A DNA stretch of 64,000 nt from a virus (Duplodnaviria; Caudoviricetes), in IMG/VR virus record IMGVR_UViG_2744054987_000003, positions 32,001 to 96,000 of that record; one strand, given 5' to 3'. A program made the position numbers and the translations under genes. The notes beneath the pieces were generated by a model that saw nothing but the letters and a program-made list of their open reading frames with translations, had not been told where the DNA came from and made no database searches. Within the stretch, counting starts at the first letter, position 1. The number at the start of each line of letters is the position of its first letter. This document shows, in pieces, positions 422-15,503 of the stretch.

Positions 422-1624
422 TCAGAGCAGGTCGTCAAAGGACTCGACAGCGGCCATCACGGTGCGCGGAGCTGATGGTGTGATGGTGTGAAACGGTGGC
501 CTGCCGGTGCGGGGGGCCACGCGCATCTGGTCGACATCCATCTTCGCGCCGGGCAGCATCGTGATCTCCTGCTCACTGCGCCAGGGACCGCCGGTGTCTT
601 GCCGGTAGGGGTCTTCGCCGACGCCCCTCCACGGCGAACGCAGTACCACAGAGTGCTCATCAGCGCGACGGTTGGTGCCAAACGCTCGCGCTATCGCAGG
701 ATTGGTACTCCAGTGGGTGCCCAAACCCCCTCGACCACGCCGATTGGCGGGATCGTTCGTCAAGTAGTCCAGCACCCCGTTGAGGACTTCGTCATGAGCT
801 ATGTTGTCGGGGTCAGCCTGGGCGCGATCCAAAGCACGCACAGCCCCCACGGGGATCTGGACGCCACGGTAGAGGTTGATGGGGTCGGTATCGAGCAGAT
901 GTTCGGTGCCGGGCAACACAGGCTGTTCCGGCTCGGAATGAGTAAAGCGGGTCTCCGGCCGGGCGATGCTGGGGGACTCGGGGTTGACGTCATGCGGACT
1001 GTAGTAGGCGAAATCGTCTTCATACTGCAATCCGCGTCGCTTCTCCCCGGAGCCGGGCCGATCCCTGACGCGATAGCGAGACGGGTAGCGCTCATCTTCC
1101 TGTGCGGGGTGGTAGCTGGGGTACTGATCATAAGACGTGCTCATGGTGTAGACGAGGTCATCGTCTCGTGGATTGTCGTCAGACAGACCCCAGTCGTAGA
1201 GTTGGTTGACGAAATGATTTTGGGATTCGCGTGAACTACCGGCGTCCTGCGCCCAGCGATCGAGTGTTTCCGGCTCAACGCCGTTGAGCCAGTCGGGGAA
1301 GGCATCATAGGCTTCGGGGTGCATCTCCAGCAGATCGTCGTACCACGACGGCCCCGCCGCGTCCATCCCGCCTGATTCATGAGCGCGCAACCACTGCTGA
1401 CGAAGTTCTTCCCCGGTTGTTGCTGGACTGTCTTGCGGCGGAAGCGTGAACTTGCGCGGCGGCCAGGGCCAGCGTTCGTCGCTGACGTCTTCCAGAGACA
1501 TCTGCCTGGGGGCGATGGAGGCAGCAGTGCGGATCGTCCTGTCGATCTGGGCAGCATCGACCACGACGGGCATGAGACTGGCGATATGCCAGTTCTGTTC
1601 TGCGGCTGTGATGATGCGACGCAC
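422..1624 (-). CDS. Protein with C-terminal R-S-E type (VIP2/Alt-like) ADP-ribosyltransferase domain
   Basis: 400 aa; LYRG...HWSTN...EQEI motifs in the order and spacing of R-S-E ARTs. Confidence 0.7.
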   Translation of the reverse strand: MRRIITAAEQNWHIASLMPVVVDAAQIDRTIRTAASIAPRQMSLEDVSDERWPWPPRKFTLPPQDSPATTGEELRQQWLRAHESGGMDAAGPSWYDDLLEMHPEAYDAFPDWLNGVEPETLDRWAQDAGSSRESQNHFVNQLYDWGLSDDNPRDDDLVYTMSTSYDQYPSYHPAQEDERYPSRYRVRDRPGSGEKRRGLQYEDDFAYYSPHDVNPESPSIARPETRFTHSEPEQPVLPGTEHLLDTDPINLYRGVQIPVGAVRALDRAQADPDNIAHDEVLNGVLDYLTNDPANRRGRGGLGTHWSTNPAIARAFGTNRRADEHSVVLRSPWRGVGEDPYRQDTGGPWRSEQEITMLPGAKMDVDQMRVAPRTGRPPFHTITPSAPRTVMAAVESFDDLL

Positions 1625-1634
1625 GAATGGGTGA

Positions 1635-1652
1635 CCTCCTCACCCATTCAGG
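1635..1652 (-). promoter_or_regulatory. CCTGAATAGGTGAGGAGG-family motif, copy 2
   Basis: CCTGAATGGGTGAGGAGG about 10 nt upstream of the ART start. Confidence 0.6.
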
Positions 1653-1663
1653 CGCTAATAGGT

Positions 1664-1819
1664 CTAGCCGCTGTCTTCGGATATGCCGAGCAGTTCAGCC
1701 AATGCCTGATCTGAGGGGGCATCGTCTGGACAGACGTGTCCCCATGCCAGTCGGTTAGGGGCGTTCGAATACTTTTTCACCAGCGGCTGACGACAGTATC
1801 GGCACTCAGTTGTGTCCAT
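1664..1819 (-). CDS. Small CxxC hypothetical protein (51 aa)
   Basis: Hand-read MDTTECRYCRQPLVKK...SEDSG; fills the gap and overlaps the upstream gene end. Confidence 0.55.
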   Translation of the reverse strand: MDTTECRYCRQPLVKKYSNAPNRLAWGHVCPDDAPSDQALAELLGISEDSG

Positions 1820-2255
1820 CGTTCACCAATGCCACAACCGACTCGCGGTCGGTGATCTCCCCGCGCAGCGCGGCTTCGATCATACGGACCAGTGTCTTGG
1901 TGACGACCTGGTATTGCTGCGATGCGGCATGGAACAAAGTGTCGTACTTGCTCTCGCCGCCGTACGGACCGTAGGGCTGCACCTGGTCGCTGGGGCAGCC
2001 TTCGATGTGAATTTCATCGGAGTTGCGATGCTCATAGCAGCAGAACGTCCAGCCTCCGGCAGTGAAGGTCAGACCCCACTCGCGGCAGTTGTCGAAAACG
2101 CCGAAGTCAATCCTGTCGCCGAATCCCTCAGCCAACGCACCGCCGACCTCTTTGGCGATGATGTATTGACGTATCGGTTCGTCGGGGTACATCTCCTCCC
2201 AGTAAGGAAGATTCTGGTCGACGCGCAACTGCGCGATGGCATCGCTGTAGTTCAT
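1806..2255 (-). CDS. Hypothetical protein (149 aa)
   Basis: ORF track; ATGA overlap with the upstream ORF. Confidence 0.75.
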   Translation of the reverse strand: MNYSDAIAQLRVDQNLPYWEEMYPDEPIRQYIIAKEVGGALAEGFGDRIDFGVFDNCREWGLTFTAGGWTFCCYEHRNSDEIHIEGCPSDQVQPYGPYGGESKYDTLFHAASQQYQVVTKTLVRMIEAALRGEITDRESVVALVNDGHN

Positions 2256-2368
2256 GCTGTCACTTCCTGTTCGGCAAGCCAGCCAGACAATTCGTGACGC
2301 TTAAGAGTGCCATTGGGCATGATGTGCTGGACCTCGATGCCGTCGCGGGTGGCCAGGTCGGAGATCAT
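2252..2368 (-). pseudogene. Displaced original 3' end of the DUF488 gene (38-aa mini-ORF)
   Basis: MISDLATRDGIEVQHIMPNGTLKRHELSGWLAEQEVTA aligns with the DUF488 C-terminus MISDLATRDGVPVYHIWPNGSAKLHELSGWLKQEG. Confidence 0.85.
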
Positions 2369-2943
2369 GCACGCCTCCTGTCCTTGCGACGCATCCGATC
2401 GCGATTGCAAGCGCGACAATCTCTATGACCTGTTTTCCTGATAAAGGTATTGGCCTCATCAAAGAGATGACCGTTTTTGCAGTGCGTCTTAAGCCCATTA
2501 TGTAGCTTGCCTTCAGCCGTCGCTTTTCTACGCCGCTTCTCGTCAAGGCAAGGTTTACATGCCGCCTGTCTCTTCGCTCCAATACGAACGATATTATCCT
2601 CTATCCATAGATGCTTGTTAGCACGACACATACCAGCAAAGTCGTTGCATGATCGTCCCCTGCGGGTGTTCTCTGCCCCTGTCACCTGCTCCAGATGACT
2701 AGGTCGAACACACCCACGATTACGACAGTTGTGATCGGTCTCTAAGTCTCGATCCAGCTCAATACCAAGCAACTCCAGACCCACGCGATGTGCCCAACCA
2801 ACACCCTGACCGTGGCCCCGGTTGTACTTACCGTAGCCGTTGCGCTTGTCGCGGTAGGCAGTCCACTCCCAACACTCATCCGAAACATCCACCTTGGAGA
2901 TAAACCGTTCTGGCCACTCAGCTAGCGCACGGTCATCCAACAC
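2365..2943 (-). mobile_element. Free-standing HNH homing endonuclease
   Basis: CWEW...GYG...AHRV...DHNCRNRGCVRPSHLEQVTGAEN HNH core plus C-terminal Cys/His repeats (THCKNGHLF...RDCRAC); visibly more AT-rich than the flanks. Confidence 0.9.
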
Positions 2944-3442
2944 AACAACCCTCCTGCTTCAACCACCCGGAAAGTTCATGCAATTTGGCGGAGCCATTCG
3001 GCCAAATATGGTAGACAGGAACCCCATCGCGCGTAGCCAGATCAGAGATCATCCTGCGATGGCATCTGAATGGCGCAGGCTCTCCGCACATGATCGCGAC
3101 ATTGTGATGCTTGGACTGTTCGAGGAGCGCCTCGTAGTCGAGTGCAAAGTCCTGGGTGTGGGTGTAAGCCGCGTAGTTGGCGAAGCTCTCCACCTGCCAC
3201 CACTGGTCCTCGGGGATGCGCTCTTTGGGCGGCTTGCGCCGACCGCCGAGATTGGGCCAGTGTGAGTAGGTGACGCCAGCAAGACGAAGCCAGTCCGGCA
3301 TCCGCTCCTGGTTGAACTGAGGACTGCGACGTGAGCCGGGGAAGCTACGGACATCGGCCAGCTCGGCGATGTCGTGTCGCTTCAAGCGTTCGTTGAACTT
3401 CACCCAAGTCTCATAGCCGTGGCCGATGGTGTAGAGAGTCAT
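2933..3442 (-). CDS. DUF488 family protein
   Basis: LYTIGH, LADVRSFPGSRR.PQFN, LGGRR and MCGE...CHRR motifs. Confidence 0.85.
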   Translation of the reverse strand: MTLYTIGHGYETWVKFNERLKRHDIAELADVRSFPGSRRSPQFNQERMPDWLRLAGVTYSHWPNLGGRRKPPKERIPEDQWWQVESFANYAAYTHTQDFALDYEALLEQSKHHNVAIMCGEPAPFRCHRRMISDLATRDGVPVYHIWPNGSAKLHELSGWLKQEGCCVG

Positions 3443-3488
3443 GCGTCTCCTCGGAAGGGGTTTCTCGTCTAACCCATTGTCTCACAAA

Positions 3489-3505
3489 TGTATAGCAACT
3501 GTCTA
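3489..3505 (-). promoter_or_regulatory. TAGACA-N5-TATACA promoter element
   Basis: Intergenic, upstream of DUF488; member of the recurrent TAGACA family. Confidence 0.55.
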
Positions 3506-3513
3506 GTGCAGCG

Positions 3514-3630
3514 CTAGTCCCACGTTGAGGACTCGCATTCCTCGATGCAGTAGATGCACTGGTCGTCGACCATCTCCTCGTCATCGAGCACGTCGTGCAG
3601 CGGACACAGGTGTTCAAAACCGATCTTCAT
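3514..3630 (-). CDS. Small Cys/His zinc-finger-like protein (38 aa, ends TWD)
   Basis: Hand-read MKIGFEHLCPLHDVLDDEEMVDDQCIYCIEECESSTWD. Confidence 0.55.
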   Translation of the reverse strand: MKIGFEHLCPLHDVLDDEEMVDDQCIYCIEECESSTWD

Positions 3631-3633
3631 CGT

Positions 3634-3864
3634 CTAGCCATCCTCTCGGAAGCGACATGATTCACCCTCACTGCGTGCTGCGTGAAATTCAGCGCTCCAC
3701 TTTCGATTCAACTCCTCAAGCTCCACATCAGTGACACCGAGTGCATTTAATGCCTGTGTCGTCTCTTGACGCGCATCGTCTTCTTCTCTTGCACTACAAC
3801 AAAACTCACCAGCCACGGAACTCGACAGATATAGGATATGTAGAACGGCCTCTTCGCGCGTCAT
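3634..3864 (-). CDS. Hypothetical protein (76 aa)
   Basis: ORF track; ATGA overlap. Confidence 0.65.
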   Translation of the reverse strand: MTREEAVLHILYLSSSVAGEFCCSAREEDDARQETTQALNALGVTDVELEELNRKWSAEFHAARSEGESCRFREDG

Positions 3865-4160
3865 GCTGCTACCTCATCCACGCAGTAGCTGTCGATCCAG
3901 CTGGCGTAGCGCTCTTCCAAGCGCTCATGCCATTCACTGGGCCAGGGGTCGTCGTGTATCGCACCCAGCACCGACCCGGCGATGGCCGCAATCGAGTCGG
4001 AGTCGCCGTCGGTAAGCGCGGCACGACGCAGCGCCCGCACGGGATGATCGGGCAGCATGTCCACGCACAACAGCGCGCATGCCAGAGCGTCGGGCGCGTT
4101 CCAGCCGGGAAGCTCGCCAGAGGGATCGTCAGACCATGGGTTGTCCCTGATGCTAGCTAG
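3861..4160 (-). pseudogene. C-terminal fragment of an ADP-ribosylglycohydrolase (ARH/DraG family)
   Basis: GDSDSIAAIAGSVLGA motif; only ~100 codons, no credible start and no N-terminal TDD motif. Confidence 0.75.
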
Positions 4161-4165
4161 CGTAG

Positions 4166-4423
4166 CTAGCCGTTGAGACTGCCGGGCGTGCCCACGGGAA
4201 CTTCCTGACCGAGCCAGTTGCACGGACGCAGGGTGGCGAAGGCGGTGAACGCACACTTGAGTGCAGGATCAGCGGCGGCGCACTGCGGCTGGCCGGGACC
4301 ACCACAGGTCTGCTCCATGCCGGGCACGGCCTGCGCCGGAGCACCGGACACCGCAGCCGTCGCGCTCAGCAGCACCGCAGCGATAGAGATGACATACAAC
4401 GATTTCTTCACAGAGATGTTCAT
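4166..4423 (-). CDS. Small secreted Cys-containing protein (85 aa)
   Basis: Signal-peptide-like N-terminus ending AQA; four Cys; GGAGAG RBS. Confidence 0.7.
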   Translation of the reverse strand: MNISVKKSLYVISIAAVLLSATAAVSGAPAQAVPGMEQTCGGPGQPQCAAADPALKCAFTAFATLRPCNWLGQEVPVGTPGSLNG

Positions 4424-4499
4424 ATTAGTATCTCTCCTGTCATTGAGAAGTTATTAATTACTATTCACTTGTCGTTGTGCTGCAGTCAATACCCCGAAG

Positions 4500-4730
4500 T
4501 CATGATCCGTAAAAAGGAGGCACAATCGCGGGAGGATACGGCTGGCACACCCCGTGCAGCGGGTCGTAGAAGCCACAGTTGTCGTGCGGCCCGTAGCCGG
4601 GATAGCCGGGCTGCGGATTGGCCGGGTAGTAGGGCGCACAGGCCCCGTGCGCCGGGTCATAGACGTTGCCGTCGCCGCAGGTATTGAACGGCGCGTGCTG
4701 GAGCCACAGCGCGGCCAGAATCGTGATCAT
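4500..4730 (-). CDS. Small secreted Pro/Tyr/Cys-rich protein with an internal repeat
   Basis: MITILAALWLQHAP...; YDPxHGxCxPY occurs twice. Confidence 0.6.
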   Translation of the reverse strand: MITILAALWLQHAPFNTCGDGNVYDPAHGACAPYYPANPQPGYPGYGPHDNCGFYDPLHGVCQPYPPAIVPPFYGS

Positions 4731-5014
4731 CGGTCTTCCCTTTCCCACGGTGTGACATAGCGACTGGCGATGATCTCGGCGTCGTCGGCGTCGGTGTCAT
4801 CCAACACAAGTCCGCTGACATCGCCGACGCGCCAGGACAGTTCGGGCCGGAGCTTCAGCGCGTTGATGACCTGGCTGGCGACGTGCTCGGCGTGAGAGCC
4901 TTCGGCAGACAGGCAGTCATCGCCGCACTGACACCACCAGGCCCGCCGGTCATGGTGCACCAACAGGTGCTGCTTGTGCACGCGGGCGATCTTCTTGACG
5001 ACGTCCCGCATCAC
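4727..5014 (-). CDS. Hypothetical protein with a CxC...H metal motif
   Basis: ORF track; overlaps with neighbours. Confidence 0.65.
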   Translation of the reverse strand: MMRDVVKKIARVHKQHLLVHHDRRAWWCQCGDDCLSAEGSHAEHVASQVINALKLRPELSWRVGDVSGLVLDDTDADDAEIIASRYVTPWEREDR

Positions 5015-6365: not shown

Positions 6366-6911
6366 CTAGTAGTCGCGAGAATCGCCGTACAGGAAGCGCT
6401 GCACATGGGGATTGCGCTGCGCGGTGCATATCGCGCAGCGGCACAACATGCGGTCCTTGCCGGTGTACCGACAGACGACGACCGGCGCTGGGATCTGCGC
6501 ATCGGCGATAACCTGCGCACGAGACAGCTGGATACTCCTATGCAGCATCCCGACAAGGCCGTCATCGGTCTCACGCGCAATGACGACCCCGTTGGGGAGC
6601 GTGACGGCGTTGGTGGGACGCTCCTGCGAATCGGACTTGGCCCAGAACTCCTCGAAGACGTCGATGGCAGGCGGGTAAGAGCCATAGAGGCCCTCGGACT
6701 TGTTCTCCAGCCACAGACGGTGCTGGCGCTCGGCGCGGGCCGCCAGCGCCTGAGTCTCGGACTGCTGGTGTAGCGACGTCACATCCATGAGCTGATCCCA
6801 CACCGATTGGAGCTGCTCTTCGGTGAAGATCTTCGACACGACCGTGCATGAAGTGCCGACAACAAGCATGAGAAACAAGACCACGTATCCAACGACGTCA
6901 GGAGCCATCAC
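6366..6911 (-). CDS. Membrane-anchored hypothetical protein with C-terminal Cys cluster
   Basis: N-terminal hydrophobic helix; CRCAIC motif. Confidence 0.65.
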   Translation of the reverse strand: MMAPDVVGYVVLFLMLVVGTSCTVVSKIFTEEQLQSVWDQLMDVTSLHQQSETQALAARAERQHRLWLENKSEGLYGSYPPAIDVFEEFWAKSDSQERPTNAVTLPNGVVIARETDDGLVGMLHRSIQLSRAQVIADAQIPAPVVVCRYTGKDRMLCRCAICTAQRNPHVQRFLYGDSRDY

Positions 6912-7993: not shown

Positions 7994-8116
7994 TCAGTCC
8001 CATGTCGCTGCCTCCACTTCTTCCGCGCACATCTCACAGTCCTCGATGGGTTCGCGATGGCGGCAGAGGCGCGGAGTCTGCACCCACTGCGCTGATTCTC
8101 CGGTCATTCCGGCCAT
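7994..8116 (-). CDS. Small Cys/His zinc-finger-like protein ending TWD
   Basis: ...LCRHREPIEDCEMCAEEVEAATWD resembles 3514-3630; start uncertain. Confidence 0.5.
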   Translation of the reverse strand: MAGMTGESAQWVQTPRLCRHREPIEDCEMCAEEVEAATWD

Positions 8117-11751: not shown

Positions 11752-14700
11752 CAGGTGACCACGTAAAGCACGCCGGTGGTGCCGCTGGCGGGCAGCGATG
11801 ACCCCATCCACAATCCGGTGGCGGTGCCCGAACCCTGCACCGCGCCATCGGCTTTGGTTCCCTGAGCAGCAGTCGCATAGGCAGTGGAGTCGGTGGTTGC
11901 CGCCGTGCCGAGCCCCAGGCTGCTTCGGGCACTGGAAGCGCTCGTGCCTCCGGTGCCTCCCTTGGTGAGAGGCAGTACGCCCGATACCCCCAGTGTCACA
12001 TTGGCGCTTCCGTCGAAGGTGGGGGAGGCTCCCGAACCGAGGTTCACCGACAGAGTTCGCGCAGTCGAAAGCTCGGTGGCCGTAGCGGCATTGCCTGTGG
12101 TGTCCTGGTTGAGCGTCGGAAAATCCGAAGCACTGGCAACGCTGAATCCAGATGTGCCATTGCCTTTGACGATTCCGCTCAGCGACGTGGTTCCCGTGCC
12201 GCCGTGATTGACCGCCAGCGTACCCGAAAGCTGACTCAAAGCGGTGGGGACCGTCGGTTTGTTCAGGATCGCAGCATCCCCAGAACTGGCGTTCCAATCC
12301 GATTGAACGTTAGCCTCCGCGCCGGAGGCGATGCCCGCCAGCTTAGAGTGATCAGCATTGAGTTGGGCTCCGGTCACGGTGGTGTCAAGGTCGGTCAACG
12401 CGGTCGGAACATTCGGTGTGCCCGAAAGATCGCTGTAGGCACCGGATGTGGCCACCGTGGCAAGATCACCCGGCTGCACGGCGCTCGCCGCCAACGATCC
12501 CTGCGCGGCAGTAGCATAAGCGCTGGAGTCGGTCGCAGCAGCGGTACCGAGTGTGGGTTTGTTCAAGATGGCGGCATCACCGGAGCTGGCGTTCCAGTCC
12601 GATTGCACGTTGGCTTCTGCGCCCGAAGCGATCCCGGCGAGCTTGGCATGGTCGGCGTTGAGTTGCGCGCCGGTGACCGTCGTATCCAGGTCGGTGAGAG
12701 CATCAGGGATTGCGGGTGTGCCCGACAGATCCCCGTACGCGCCGGAGGTGGCGACGGTAGCCAGATCAGCGGGCTGCACCGCTGAATCGGCCTTGGTGCC
12801 CTGCGCTGCTGTCGCATACGCTGTCGCGCTTGTTGTTGCCGCACTTCCCAGCCCATCGATGGCGGCGGCGTTGAGAGCCTGCCAGGTCTTGTCGCCGCGC
12901 CAGTACTGCGCGGTGGTGCCCGCGCCGATCTTGGGTTCTTTGGTGGCATCGGCCACGGTGATGTTGGCGGTGCCGTCGAAGTTCACCCCGTTGATGGCGC
13001 GCGCGGTGGTGAGTTTAGCGGCGCTGGCCACGGACTTGGACGCATCGGCAGTGTTGTCGACGTTGCCCAGGCCGACATCGGATTTGGTCAGCACCACGTC
13101 GCCGGTGCGCCCGGCCACCGACGAGACCGCATCCGAGCCGCCGGAGACCTCCCACACCGAACCGCTGTAGGTGACCCAGTCGCCGACTCCGAACTCGATA
13201 TCACCCGAGCCGAGGTCTTGGGTGCCCGCCACCGAGACGCGATAGACATCGCCGATATTGCCGATGCCATCAGCCAGCGTCGGGGTATTCGTCGAGGCGT
13301 TCCAGACGCCCTGGTATTCCATGACGGTGGCGGGCAGCTGTGAGGCGGGCACTTTACCGCCTGAATCCAGCGAGGCATACCCGCCCGCTGCGCCCTTGTT
13401 CGCGGCGTCTTCGGGAGTGTATCCCAGTGCCGCCTGTTTGCCGTCGAGCTGCGTTTGGATCGAGCTGGTGGCATCGAGGTAGCCCAGCTCGGTTTTCGTG
13501 ACCCCAGCGCCGTGCAGGGCGTTGATCTCCGACGCGGTGGCCGTGATCGACTGCTGCCAGGAGTACAGCGCATTCAGCTGAGTGCCGGTGACCGTGGTGT
13601 CAAGATCGGTCAATGCTGTGGGCAGCGCCGGGGTATTGAGCAGATCAGCGTAATCCCCGCTGGTGGCTACCGTTGAAAGATCACCGGGCTGGACCGCGCT
13701 GTCAGCCAGAGCCCCTTGGGCTGCAGTGGCGTACGCGGTGGAATTGGTGGCTGCTGCGGTCCCGAGGGTGGGCGTACCGGACAGATCGCCGTAGGCACCG
13801 CTCGTAGCGACATCGGCGAGGTCAGCCGGTTGGACCGCACTGTCGGCGAGTGCGCCTTGGGTTGCGGTCGCGAACTCCCCGACGTTGTGGGAGGCGGCGC
13901 TGCCCAGCGTCGGTTTGTTGAGGATCGCCGCGTCGCCGGTGGTCGCATCCCAGTCTGCCTGCACATTAGCTTCGGCCCCGGCAGCGATGCCATCGACCTT
14001 GGTCTTGAGCGCGTTGAGCTGCGCCCCGCTGACCGTGGTATCGAGATCGGTCAAGGCGGCGGGGATGTCGGGCACACCGGACAGGTCGCTGTATGCGCCA
14101 GTGGTGGCCACCGTCGCCAGGTCGGCAGCCTGGATGGCGGTGTCGGCCTTGTCGCCCTGAGTCGCGGTGGCGAAATCGGTTGCGGCATGCGACGAAGCGG
14201 TACCCAACGTGGGTTTGTTGAGGATCTGCGCATCCCCTGATGCGGCATTCCAGTCCGGCTGCACGTTGACTTCAGCACCAGAGGCGATACCTGCCAACTT
14301 CGAATGGTCGGCATTGAGCTGGGCACCAGTGACCGTGGTGTCAAGATCGGTGAGAGCGCCAGGAATCGTCGGTGTGCCCGACAAGTCGGTGTACGCACCG
14401 GACGTAGCCACTGTCGCCAAATCGCCTGGCTGGACAGACGAATCGGCCAGTGCCCCCTGTGCGCTAGTCGCGAAATCGGTTGCAGCATGAGTGGCTGCGG
14501 TGCCAAGTGAACTGGCATCAACTTTGGCGTCAAGGGCGGTCTTGAGGTCAGTTTGATTAGCCAGCGTGCCGGTGATATCACCCCACACGGCACCCGTGTC
14601 GGCAGGAGTATCGACAAGATCGTTGTAGGAGCCGGAAGTGGCCACCGCCGCGAGGTCACCTGGTTGCACAGCACTGTCGGCGGTGGCCCCTTGGCTGGCG

Positions 14701-15503
14701 GTGGCGAAGTCGGTGGCGGCATGGCTTGCCGCGCTGCCTAACGCAGGCTTGTTGAGGATCGCAGCATCCCCGCTGGAGGCATCCCAGTCGGGCTGGACGT
14801 TAGCTTCGGCCCCCGACGCTATCCCGGCAAGTTTGGTGTGGTCAGCGTCGAGCTGCGCGCCGGTAACGCTGGTGTCGAGATCAGTCAAGGCGTCGGGAAT
14901 CGCAGGGGTGCCCGACAGGTCGCTGTATGCGCCGGTGGTGGCGACACTCGCCAAGTCCGGCTTGTTGAGGATCTCGCTGACCCCGGAGGTGGCGTTCCAG
15001 TCGGAGTTGACCTGCGCGGCTGGGATGCTCGGGGTGCCGGTCAGGTCATCGTAGGCTCCGGTGGTGGCGACAGTGGCCAGATCAGCTGGCTGAACCGCCG
15101 AGTCCGCTGTCGCACCCTGAGCAGCAGTAGCGAAATCGGTGGCGGCGTGCGTCGAGGCGGTGCCCAAAGAACTGGTGTCGGCCTTGGCATCCAGCGCCGT
15201 CTTGAGATCGGTCTGGTCTGTCAGGGTGCCGGTGATGTCGCCCCAGACCGCAGCGGTGTCTGCAGGCGTATCGACAAGGTCGTTGTAGGAGCCGCTGGTA
15301 GCGACATCGGCCAAATCGCTCGGTTCGACGTAGATCGCATCGAGGGCTTCGCGGGTATCCGAATCAGACTGATTGATCAATCCGACAAGGGTGGGTTCGG
15401 TCAGGCCACCGCCGGTGGCCGCAGTCACCTGGGCGTCGACGTAGCCCTTGGTGGCGGCTTCGCTGTTGGATGTGGGCGCAGGCCCGAGTAGTTCGCGTGC
15501 CAT
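11751..15503 (-). CDS. Repeat-rich tail fibre protein (1250 aa)
   Basis: 10 copies of VAT[ST]GxYxDL, 6 of ALTDLDT, 6 of ILNKP; AATKGYVD, VSSVAGRTGDVVL and LGNVDNTAD fibre motifs. Confidence 0.8.
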   Translation of the reverse strand: MARELLGPAPTSNSEAATKGYVDAQVTAATGGGLTEPTLVGLINQSDSDTREALDAIYVEPSDLADVATSGSYNDLVDTPADTAAVWGDITGTLTDQTDLKTALDAKADTSSLGTASTHAATDFATAAQGATADSAVQPADLATVATTGAYDDLTGTPSIPAAQVNSDWNATSGVSEILNKPDLASVATTGAYSDLSGTPAIPDALTDLDTSVTGAQLDADHTKLAGIASGAEANVQPDWDASSGDAAILNKPALGSAASHAATDFATASQGATADSAVQPGDLAAVATSGSYNDLVDTPADTGAVWGDITGTLANQTDLKTALDAKVDASSLGTAATHAATDFATSAQGALADSSVQPGDLATVATSGAYTDLSGTPTIPGALTDLDTTVTGAQLNADHSKLAGIASGAEVNVQPDWNAASGDAQILNKPTLGTASSHAATDFATATQGDKADTAIQAADLATVATTGAYSDLSGVPDIPAALTDLDTTVSGAQLNALKTKVDGIAAGAEANVQADWDATTGDAAILNKPTLGSAASHNVGEFATATQGALADSAVQPADLADVATSGAYGDLSGTPTLGTAAATNSTAYATAAQGALADSAVQPGDLSTVATSGDYADLLNTPALPTALTDLDTTVTGTQLNALYSWQQSITATASEINALHGAGVTKTELGYLDATSSIQTQLDGKQAALGYTPEDAANKGAAGGYASLDSGGKVPASQLPATVMEYQGVWNASTNTPTLADGIGNIGDVYRVSVAGTQDLGSGDIEFGVGDWVTYSGSVWEVSGGSDAVSSVAGRTGDVVLTKSDVGLGNVDNTADASKSVASAAKLTTARAINGVNFDGTANITVADATKEPKIGAGTTAQYWRGDKTWQALNAAAIDGLGSAATTSATAYATAAQGTKADSAVQPADLATVATSGAYGDLSGTPAIPDALTDLDTTVTGAQLNADHAKLAGIASGAEANVQSDWNASSGDAAILNKPTLGTAAATDSSAYATAAQGSLAASAVQPGDLATVATSGAYSDLSGTPNVPTALTDLDTTVTGAQLNADHSKLAGIASGAEANVQSDWNASSGDAAILNKPTVPTALSQLSGTLAVNHGGTGTTSLSGIVKGNGTSGFSVASASDFPTLNQDTTGNAATATELSTARTLSVNLGSGASPTFDGSANVTLGVSGVLPLTKGGTGGTSASSARSSLGLGTAATTDSTAYATAAQGTKADGAVQGSGTATGLWMGSSLPASGTTGVLYVVT

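Follow-up and report, generated by a model that had tools for sequence, protein, structure and literature searches.

To our knowledge, homing endonuclease genes are thought to persist inside other genes only through removal by an intron or intein, or through reassembly of a split gene. The locus described here raises the question of how an endonuclease gene can lie inside a gene for a DUF488 protein and leave that gene whole, and why the end of the gene is present twice. The locus is part of a stretch of 64,000 nucleotides, referred to below as the window, which comprises bases 32001-96000 of the IMG/VR record IMGVR_UViG_2744054987_000003 (147.5 kb, classed as a provirus, with an actinobacterium as host). 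In this window an HNH endonuclease open reading frame (ORF) is flanked by two copies of the 3' end of the DUF488 gene, the first of which is in frame and completes the gene. With moderate confidence the arrangement is read as an intronless homing cassette, in which a free-standing HNH gene travels together with a foreign DUF488 end of about the last 39 codons. The observations that bear on this are the anatomy of the locus, a split in codon composition, a split in family consensus and an exchange boundary close to the HNH gene.

All genes between positions 422 and 6911, including those of the locus, are on the minus strand, and the neighbours match phage families. The DUF488 gene (2933-3442) encodes 169 amino acids and matches PF04343 (E 1.7e-24, 87.2 bits against a cut-off of 22.2). 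Codons 1-130 (3053-3442) form a core that appears to be retained from the resident gene, while the last 39 codons and the stop (2933-3052), in frame with the core, form the putative substitute end. This end had been quoted incompletely in the first-pass annotation of the window; the protein extends four residues further (...KQEGCCVG). The HNH gene (2365-2943, 192 amino acids) has a GTG start and overlaps the last 11 bases of the DUF488 gene. A Shine-Dalgarno-like GGAGGG (2949-2954) within the substitute tail, with GGAGG 6 nt upstream of the GTG, may serve its translation. Downstream of the HNH gene lies what would be the displaced native end of DUF488, an intact ORF of 38 codons with family-consensus residues (2252-2368), here called the stranded tail. 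Its ATG overlaps the HNH stop in an ATGA (2365-2368) and its stop overlaps the ATG of the next gene in a second ATGA (2252-2255), both of which are present as first annotated. An AGGAGG in the final HNH codons (2374-2379), 5 nt upstream of the ATG of the stranded tail, is a candidate ribosome site. The next gene (1806-2255) encodes 149 amino acids and belongs to the phage family phrog_11149 (E 2.6e-37).

The stranded tail is a repeat of the DUF488 end, beginning at the conserved Met of MISDL. Used as a query against the genome, the DUF488 protein also picks up this copy (E 5.6e-12). The two ends can be compared over 31 codons, in which 24/31 residues and 59/93 bases are identical (63% DNA identity), and 15 of the 22 degenerate codons that encode the same residue in both are spelled differently. 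The second DUF488 end that the first-pass annotation had placed just downstream of the HNH gene is thereby confirmed. There is no similarity between the two copies on the 5' side of the Met. A weak similarity between the 5' ends of the HNH gene and of the next gene, found off frame with tblastn, was judged to be due to chance.

The hybrid DUF488 protein has the invariant residues of the family (G7, H8, D30, R32, C119, E121, R126-R129 and H145), with the near-invariant W125 replaced by F. Its AlphaFold model is a single domain with a predicted local distance difference test score (pLDDT) of 90.3, in which the substitute tail comprises two helices with two strands between them (pLDDT 90-96). The invariant H145 lies within the tail. 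Without the tail, a DUF488 protein truncated after codon 130 would probably not work properly, so that the spare end has a use. No solved structure matching the HNH or DUF488 protein by sequence was found, and a fold search with the DUF488 model gave no match at E <= 0.001.

The two ends differ in codon composition. The GC content at third codon positions (GC3) is 0.769 in the DUF488 core (100/130) and 0.76 in the next gene (114/150). The in-gene tail has 0.525 (21/40) and the HNH gene about 0.51 (97/189), and the stranded tail has 0.692 (27/39). Compared with the resident reference, which consists of the DUF488 core and the next gene together (214/280), both the in-gene tail (Fisher test, p 0.003) and the HNH gene (p 2e-8) deviate. 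The codon split noticed at first pass, with an HNH-like tail in the gene and a GC-rich one stranded, is upheld by these values. The in-gene tail had also been called recoded; this is fair as a description, but an import from a lower-GC relative would be spelled in this way even if recoding had never been selected for. When two segments were fitted to GC3 over the length of the DUF488 gene, the best change point lay near codon 119 (permutation p 0.02, with little difference in fit between 111 and 132), and the imported tract may therefore begin about 10 codons ahead of the duplication.

Comparison with the protein family gives the same polarity. Among 119 DUF488 homologs drawn from a search of 5.8 billion proteins, the stranded tail was the closer of the two for 95 and the in-gene tail for 9, with 15 ties. 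The in-gene part of the protein deviates by F in place of W (119/119 homologs), W in place of M (106/119) and A in place of L (92/119), and the stranded tail has the consensus M and L where the in-gene tail has W and A. The DUF488 tail of a Mycobacterium chromosome matched 69/93 bases of the stranded tail and 55/93 of the in-gene tail. This nearness of the displaced copy to its relatives holds at the family level, and on it the stranded tail would be the native one. Both tails have residues that are rare compared with the family majorities (S133, K153, E156, L157 and G159); a related DUF488 gene of the phage type, in a genome of lower GC, is therefore the probable source of the imported tail.

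The HNH protein is also encoded on a 7,461-base metagenome contig, L084, with an identical cassette arrangement. The two sequences align over 6,268 bases with 97.2% identity. Not one difference falls between 2307 and at least 4199, where the HNH gene, both parts of DUF488 and two upstream genes are located. The first differences are in the stranded tail, a synonymous one at 2306 and an exchange of Ala for Val in L084 or the reverse at 2274; two more, at 2208 and 2191, precede a dense series below 2140, so that identity breaks down in a zone from 2140 to 2306, the recombination boundary. In the next gene 67/429 bases differ (15.6%), affecting 32 codons synonymously and 23 non-synonymously, and the two sequences cease to align beyond 1827. 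Contigs of a soil sequencing run (X1) have the same variants as L084. These positions place one end of a recent exchange at a distance of 59-225 bases from the HNH stop. Of the two tails, the in-gene one is within the block shared with the HNH gene and the stranded tail opens the diverged backbone, a pattern that fits co-conversion around a homing endonuclease gene. The first-pass proposal of a cassette inserted into DUF488 with a substitute tail is thus supported as regards the interruption at codon 130/131 and the displacement of the native end, to which GC3, family consensus, the mycobacterial tail and L084 all point. Elsewhere in the alignment of the window with L084, sharply bounded divergent blocks (4800-5000, 6400-6800 and 8000-8094) stand amid near-identical sequence, and the ORF at 6366-6911 is 13% different; such blocks are mosaic exchange between two close phages.

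The HNH gene is free-standing, since no intron RNA was found and its frame differs from that of DUF488. Positions 1500-4500 gave no Rfam match at E up to 1, and the HNH ORF is in another frame with its own start and stop, which rules out an intron or intein. The protein matches PF13392 (HNH_3 / His-Me finger) by a narrow margin (25.8 bits against a cut-off of 24.8, E 8.4e-6) and the family phrog_826, annotated as HNH endonuclease, at E 5.2e-41. Seven residues that are invariant in 15 aligned relatives are present in it (H52, D70, H71, C73, C78, H83 and N92), and catalytic roles are assigned to them as the conserved His, Asp, Asn and Cys of the nuclease core. It also has two zinc-finger-like Cys/His repeats, which by their sequence would be fit for site recognition. 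The nearest HNH relative is 54% identical, so that the relatives did not reveal another place where this enzyme has inserted. A promoter and terminator scan gave 4 promoter-like sites against 1.2 expected, none of which was taken as evidence. One HNH relative, a protein of 333 amino acids (P0123), aligns as two complete HNH-plus-zinc-finger units in tandem.

Gene ends are also duplicated beside other HNH genes of this kind. The 800 bases on either side of each HNH relative in viral and metagenome contigs were compared with each other, and controls were shifted by 1,400 bases. Duplications abutting the HNH gene were found at 9/106 loci, compared with 1/97 and 2/101 in the shifted controls, with some redundant contigs included in the denominators. 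The nine loci make up four distinct families, represented by L084 (the type of the window), L034 (the same contig as L162), L105, and L057-L061. The last three are mirror images of the window type, in that the downstream gene has its 5' end twice, as a short copy upstream of the HNH gene and within the full gene after it. The copy has 33 codons in L034 (2891-3785 of that locus; 68/99 bases and 28/33 residues identical, 21/28 same-residue codons respelled), 14 codons in L057 and likewise L058-L061 (L057 positions 2933-3955; 30/42 bases, 13/14 residues, 9/12 respelled) and 21 codons in L105 (5838-6757; 33/63 bases, 13/21 residues, 10/13 respelled). The three junctions of L034 are TTGA, ATGA and GTGA overlaps, and those of L057 are TAATG and ATGA.

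The target gene of L057 has relatives at 11 loci (62-70% identical). At four of these (L170, L171, L177 and L178) the target gene comes immediately after the upstream AAA_24 gene and no HNH gene intervenes, and the other seven have gaps of 183-477 bases with no match to the L057 HNH gene. The stranded copy of L057 is in the native position and has native-like codons, and the copy 3' of the HNH gene is the respelled one. L057 thus allows a comparison with empty sites, although for an analogous cassette and not for the one in the window.

Cleavage, the target site and the direction of transfer are what we infer from these observations. In the proposed origin the HNH gene would have been located directly 3' of a complete DUF488 gene in a related phage of lower GC, and a break in the resident DUF488 gene would have been mended from that donor. 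One crossover would have taken place within DUF488, near codon 119, and the other end would have been joined at the ATGA microhomology of the conserved Met codon. The gene would then have been completed by the imported tail, and the native tail displaced downstream, where it would still abut the next gene as before. The cassette would spread when the HNH enzyme breaks HNH-free DUF488 alleles near codon 130/131 and repair copies the substitute tail together with the HNH gene, with homology provided on one side by the DUF488 core and on the other by the stranded tail and the next gene. The target would be destroyed at both new junctions, and the low identity of the tails (63% of the DNA) would prevent recombination between them and loss of the HNH gene.

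A more general, tentative suggestion is that HNH genes of phages have a splice-free way of life in genes, by means of a diverged spare end (3' in the window and 5' in L034, L057 and L105), with the displaced piece kept as a short chained ORF and translation crossing the insertion. If so, the spare end would have three jobs, namely to keep the host gene whole, to destroy the target of the endonuclease and to be too diverged for recombination to remove the element. This would be the functional equivalent of an intron or intein, made by DNA duplication only.

A further role has been suggested for the stranded tail itself, in which its 38 codons would be translated from the AGGAGG and ATG and would hand ribosomes on to the next gene, restoring a coupling broken by the insertion. 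The basis of this coupling-peptide idea is the anatomy, that is the AGGAGG 5 nt upstream of the ATG and the ATGA overlaps at both ends of the ORF, and we consider it doubtful. The ORF is intact with all its consensus residues, but this is expected anyway if the insertion is recent, and the two differences from L084 within it, one synonymous and one non-synonymous, give no sign of constraint. The downstream ATGA is the ancestral junction of DUF488 with the next gene, and the upstream ATG is no new start but the conserved Met codon of the family (M in 71/119 homologs). The next gene moreover has its own AGGAAG 7 nt upstream of its ATG. Chained overlapping ORFs recur at L034 and L057, and coupling through overlaps has been proposed for T4 endonuclease genes, as far as the accessible parts of PMC2988022 go; in compact phage genomes, however, overlaps are frequent. 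None of the junctions of the window had significant RNA structure (z 0.38, -1.12 and -0.42), hairpins masking ribosome sites in the manner of T4 included.

The duplication could also be a remnant of tandem paralogs, with the HNH gene between two DUF488 genes and a deletion that took the first 130 codons of the second, without any import into the first. The tails are old homologs (59/93 bases), as expected of paralogs, and share their rare residues. This history is nonetheless improbable. It gives the first gene no import, yet the codon composition of that gene shifts near codon 119 to the HNH type, and it is the end of this gene, not the stranded tail, that departs from near-invariant residues. 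The deletion would also have had to stop exactly at the HNH stop, and a second copy within 2.5 kb was found at 0/80 cellular DUF488 loci.

A native in-gene tail, with the HNH gene having arrived together with a downstream tail fragment of its former host's DUF488, has parallels in the related cassettes with the gene piece on the 3' side (L034, L057 and L105) but is very unlikely, as the downstream tail has the GC3 of the resident genes and not of the HNH gene, meets the next gene by the usual ATGA, is nearer to the family consensus and is where the differences from L084 start, in the backbone, while the in-gene tail belongs to the identical HNH block.

Several points weigh against the reading as a homing cassette. 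The tails are short (40 and 39 codons), and GC3 separates the stranded tail from the HNH gene at p 0.05 only and the two tails from each other at p 0.17. Composition by itself is soft evidence, because GC3 in the neighbouring genes also varies, from 0.44 to 0.82. The boundary beside the HNH gene could be ordinary phage mosaicism, since other divergent blocks (4800-5000 and 6400-6800) occur where no nuclease was noted. Counted by distinct families, the enrichment of duplications beside HNH genes is modest (4 versus 1 and 2). An HNH-free allele of the window's DUF488 was not found in the phage collection, viral contigs, proteins or sequencing runs, so that the native state is not seen directly. 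No donor lineage of the substitute tail was found either, the best match in an exhaustive HMMER search of the C-terminal region being 67%, and the 80 cellular DUF488 loci had neither an HNH gene nor a second tail within 2.5 kb.

The searches for such an allele or donor covered several collections. The nearest other DUF488 protein among the 5.8 billion is 64% identical, and the sole close relative, L084, with its variants also in run X1, has the cassette too. In the phage collection only the next gene had a match at the DNA level, and the DUF488 protein matched 8 records at 28-29%. Viral contigs queried with DUF488, the next gene and a 24-base stretch of the stranded tail gave nothing. The substitute C-terminal region alone gave 2 candidates in the protein search, the best foreign one at 67%. 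The locus was matched in 9 sequencing runs from 6 studies, with no RNA run listed. In the contigs of four runs no joint skipping the HNH gene was found, the uncovered parts carrying no evidence; runs X2, X3 and X5 had only contigs of 151-230 bases, covering 2713-3142.

Runs labelled landfill and anaerobic digester and one unlabelled run, from three studies, have short contigs that match the HNH start and the substitute tail exactly or almost exactly. A protein of 39 amino acids (P0219) on a 1,660-base metagenome contig consists of a DUF488 tail only and begins, like the stranded tail of the window, with the conserved Met. Either another stranded tail or a gene truncated by the end of the contig could account for it.

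Among known systems, the mobile-ORF gene hybrids of fungal mitochondria come closest. In the account available in PMC3630166, an endonuclease ORF inserts into a gene along with a C-terminus that is foreign and in frame, and displaces the native one; the cases there are atp6 of Allomyces macrogynus, atp6, atp9, cox2 and nad3 of a Glomus sp., atp9 of Rhizopus and cox2 of Mortierella. The fungal precedent cited in the first-pass annotation is therefore real. C-terminal duplications beside endonuclease ORFs are also described for cob and atp6 in the available part of PMC6279837. The window resembles the hybrids in that a foreign in-frame gene end comes with an endonuclease ORF and the native end is displaced downstream, and in that the DNA is diverged with the protein kept. 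DNA identity to relatives in the fungi is 64-81% for inserted ends and 91-98% for native ends (PMC3630166, in part), and the two ends in the window are 63% identical. Unlike the fungal hybrids, the window has an actinobacterial prophage and not an organelle as host, and an HNH enzyme (PF13392) where the mitochondrial ORFs, in the available part of PMC6279837, encode LAGLIDADG or GIY-YIG enzymes. As far as the accessible descriptions of the hybrids go, the HNH gene further differs in being a separate overlapping cistron with no in-frame fusion, and every junction of the window in consisting of overlapping start and stop codons. The polarity of the fungal cases is proven there by a close insert-free relative, and no such relative was found for the window.

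Among phage systems, the free-standing seg and mob endonucleases of T4-like phages likewise have their ORFs between or within genes, with flanking DNA co-inherited, and segF overlaps its upstream gene by 11 nt, as the HNH gene does here (PMC2988022, accessible parts). The cases treated there are, however, located between genes or split genes, and a substitute gene end is not described in those parts. An endonuclease inside a coding region whose function is presumably retained is shared with nrdA/mobE of Aeh1, gene 39/60 of T4 and gene 43 of phage 25. Unlike such genes in pieces, in which two polypeptides reassemble, the DUF488 gene is made complete by a second version of its end, and the displaced piece is superfluous (PMC2988022, same parts, for the genes in pieces). 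Nuclease genes mark the boundaries of genetic exchange in ICP1 phages, and the HNH gene of the window similarly is 59 nt from the start of identity breakdown against L084; in the accessible text on ICP1 a duplication of gene ends is not seen, and duplication there concerns the endonucleases' own domains (PMC10448857). As with endonucleases of introns and inteins, the insertion is harmless to the host gene, but without splicing and by way of a spare gene end.

The arrangement is thus known from fungal mitochondria and apparently undescribed for phages. No description of an endonuclease cassette carrying a gene end in a phage or bacterium was found in the full-text literature, a scope outside which subscription journals and supplements fall, and the available parts of the reports on Xanthomonas phages (PMC2248197) and on Skunavirus HNH genes (PMC12724721) do not describe one. 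The finding here is an arrangement of the fungal type in a prophage and with an HNH enzyme, together with mirror-image versions at the 5' ends of genes beside related HNH genes.

A cassette with a spare gene end would be a third solution for endonuclease genes inside genes. If it is general, it would account for some of the short orphan ORFs and gene fragments beside phage HNH genes, and the start of the duplication would be a simple signature of endonuclease target sites. Gene ends beside such elements may then be foreign and mislead phylogenies. The comparison with L084 adds a case of an endonuclease gene at a phage recombination boundary.

Some features outside the cassette were also noted. 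An ADP-ribosylglycohydrolase ORF upstream of the DUF488 gene (3861-4256, minus strand) covers only positions 194-279 of the 287 of its profile and looks like a C-terminal remnant, and the contigs of run X1 diverge from the window inside this ORF, at 4150. A small ORF at 4166-4423 encodes a product whose start resembles a signal peptide, and positions 4300-4500 are a stretch of lower GC (0.50-0.52). On the plus strand, a run of ORFs at 11802-15488 has repeated segments with 36-78% protein identity, which suggests paralogous or repeated domains. Beyond the window, at G000:C1:100747-101580, ORF units about 147 bases long are repeated in tandem with 53-84% protein identity.

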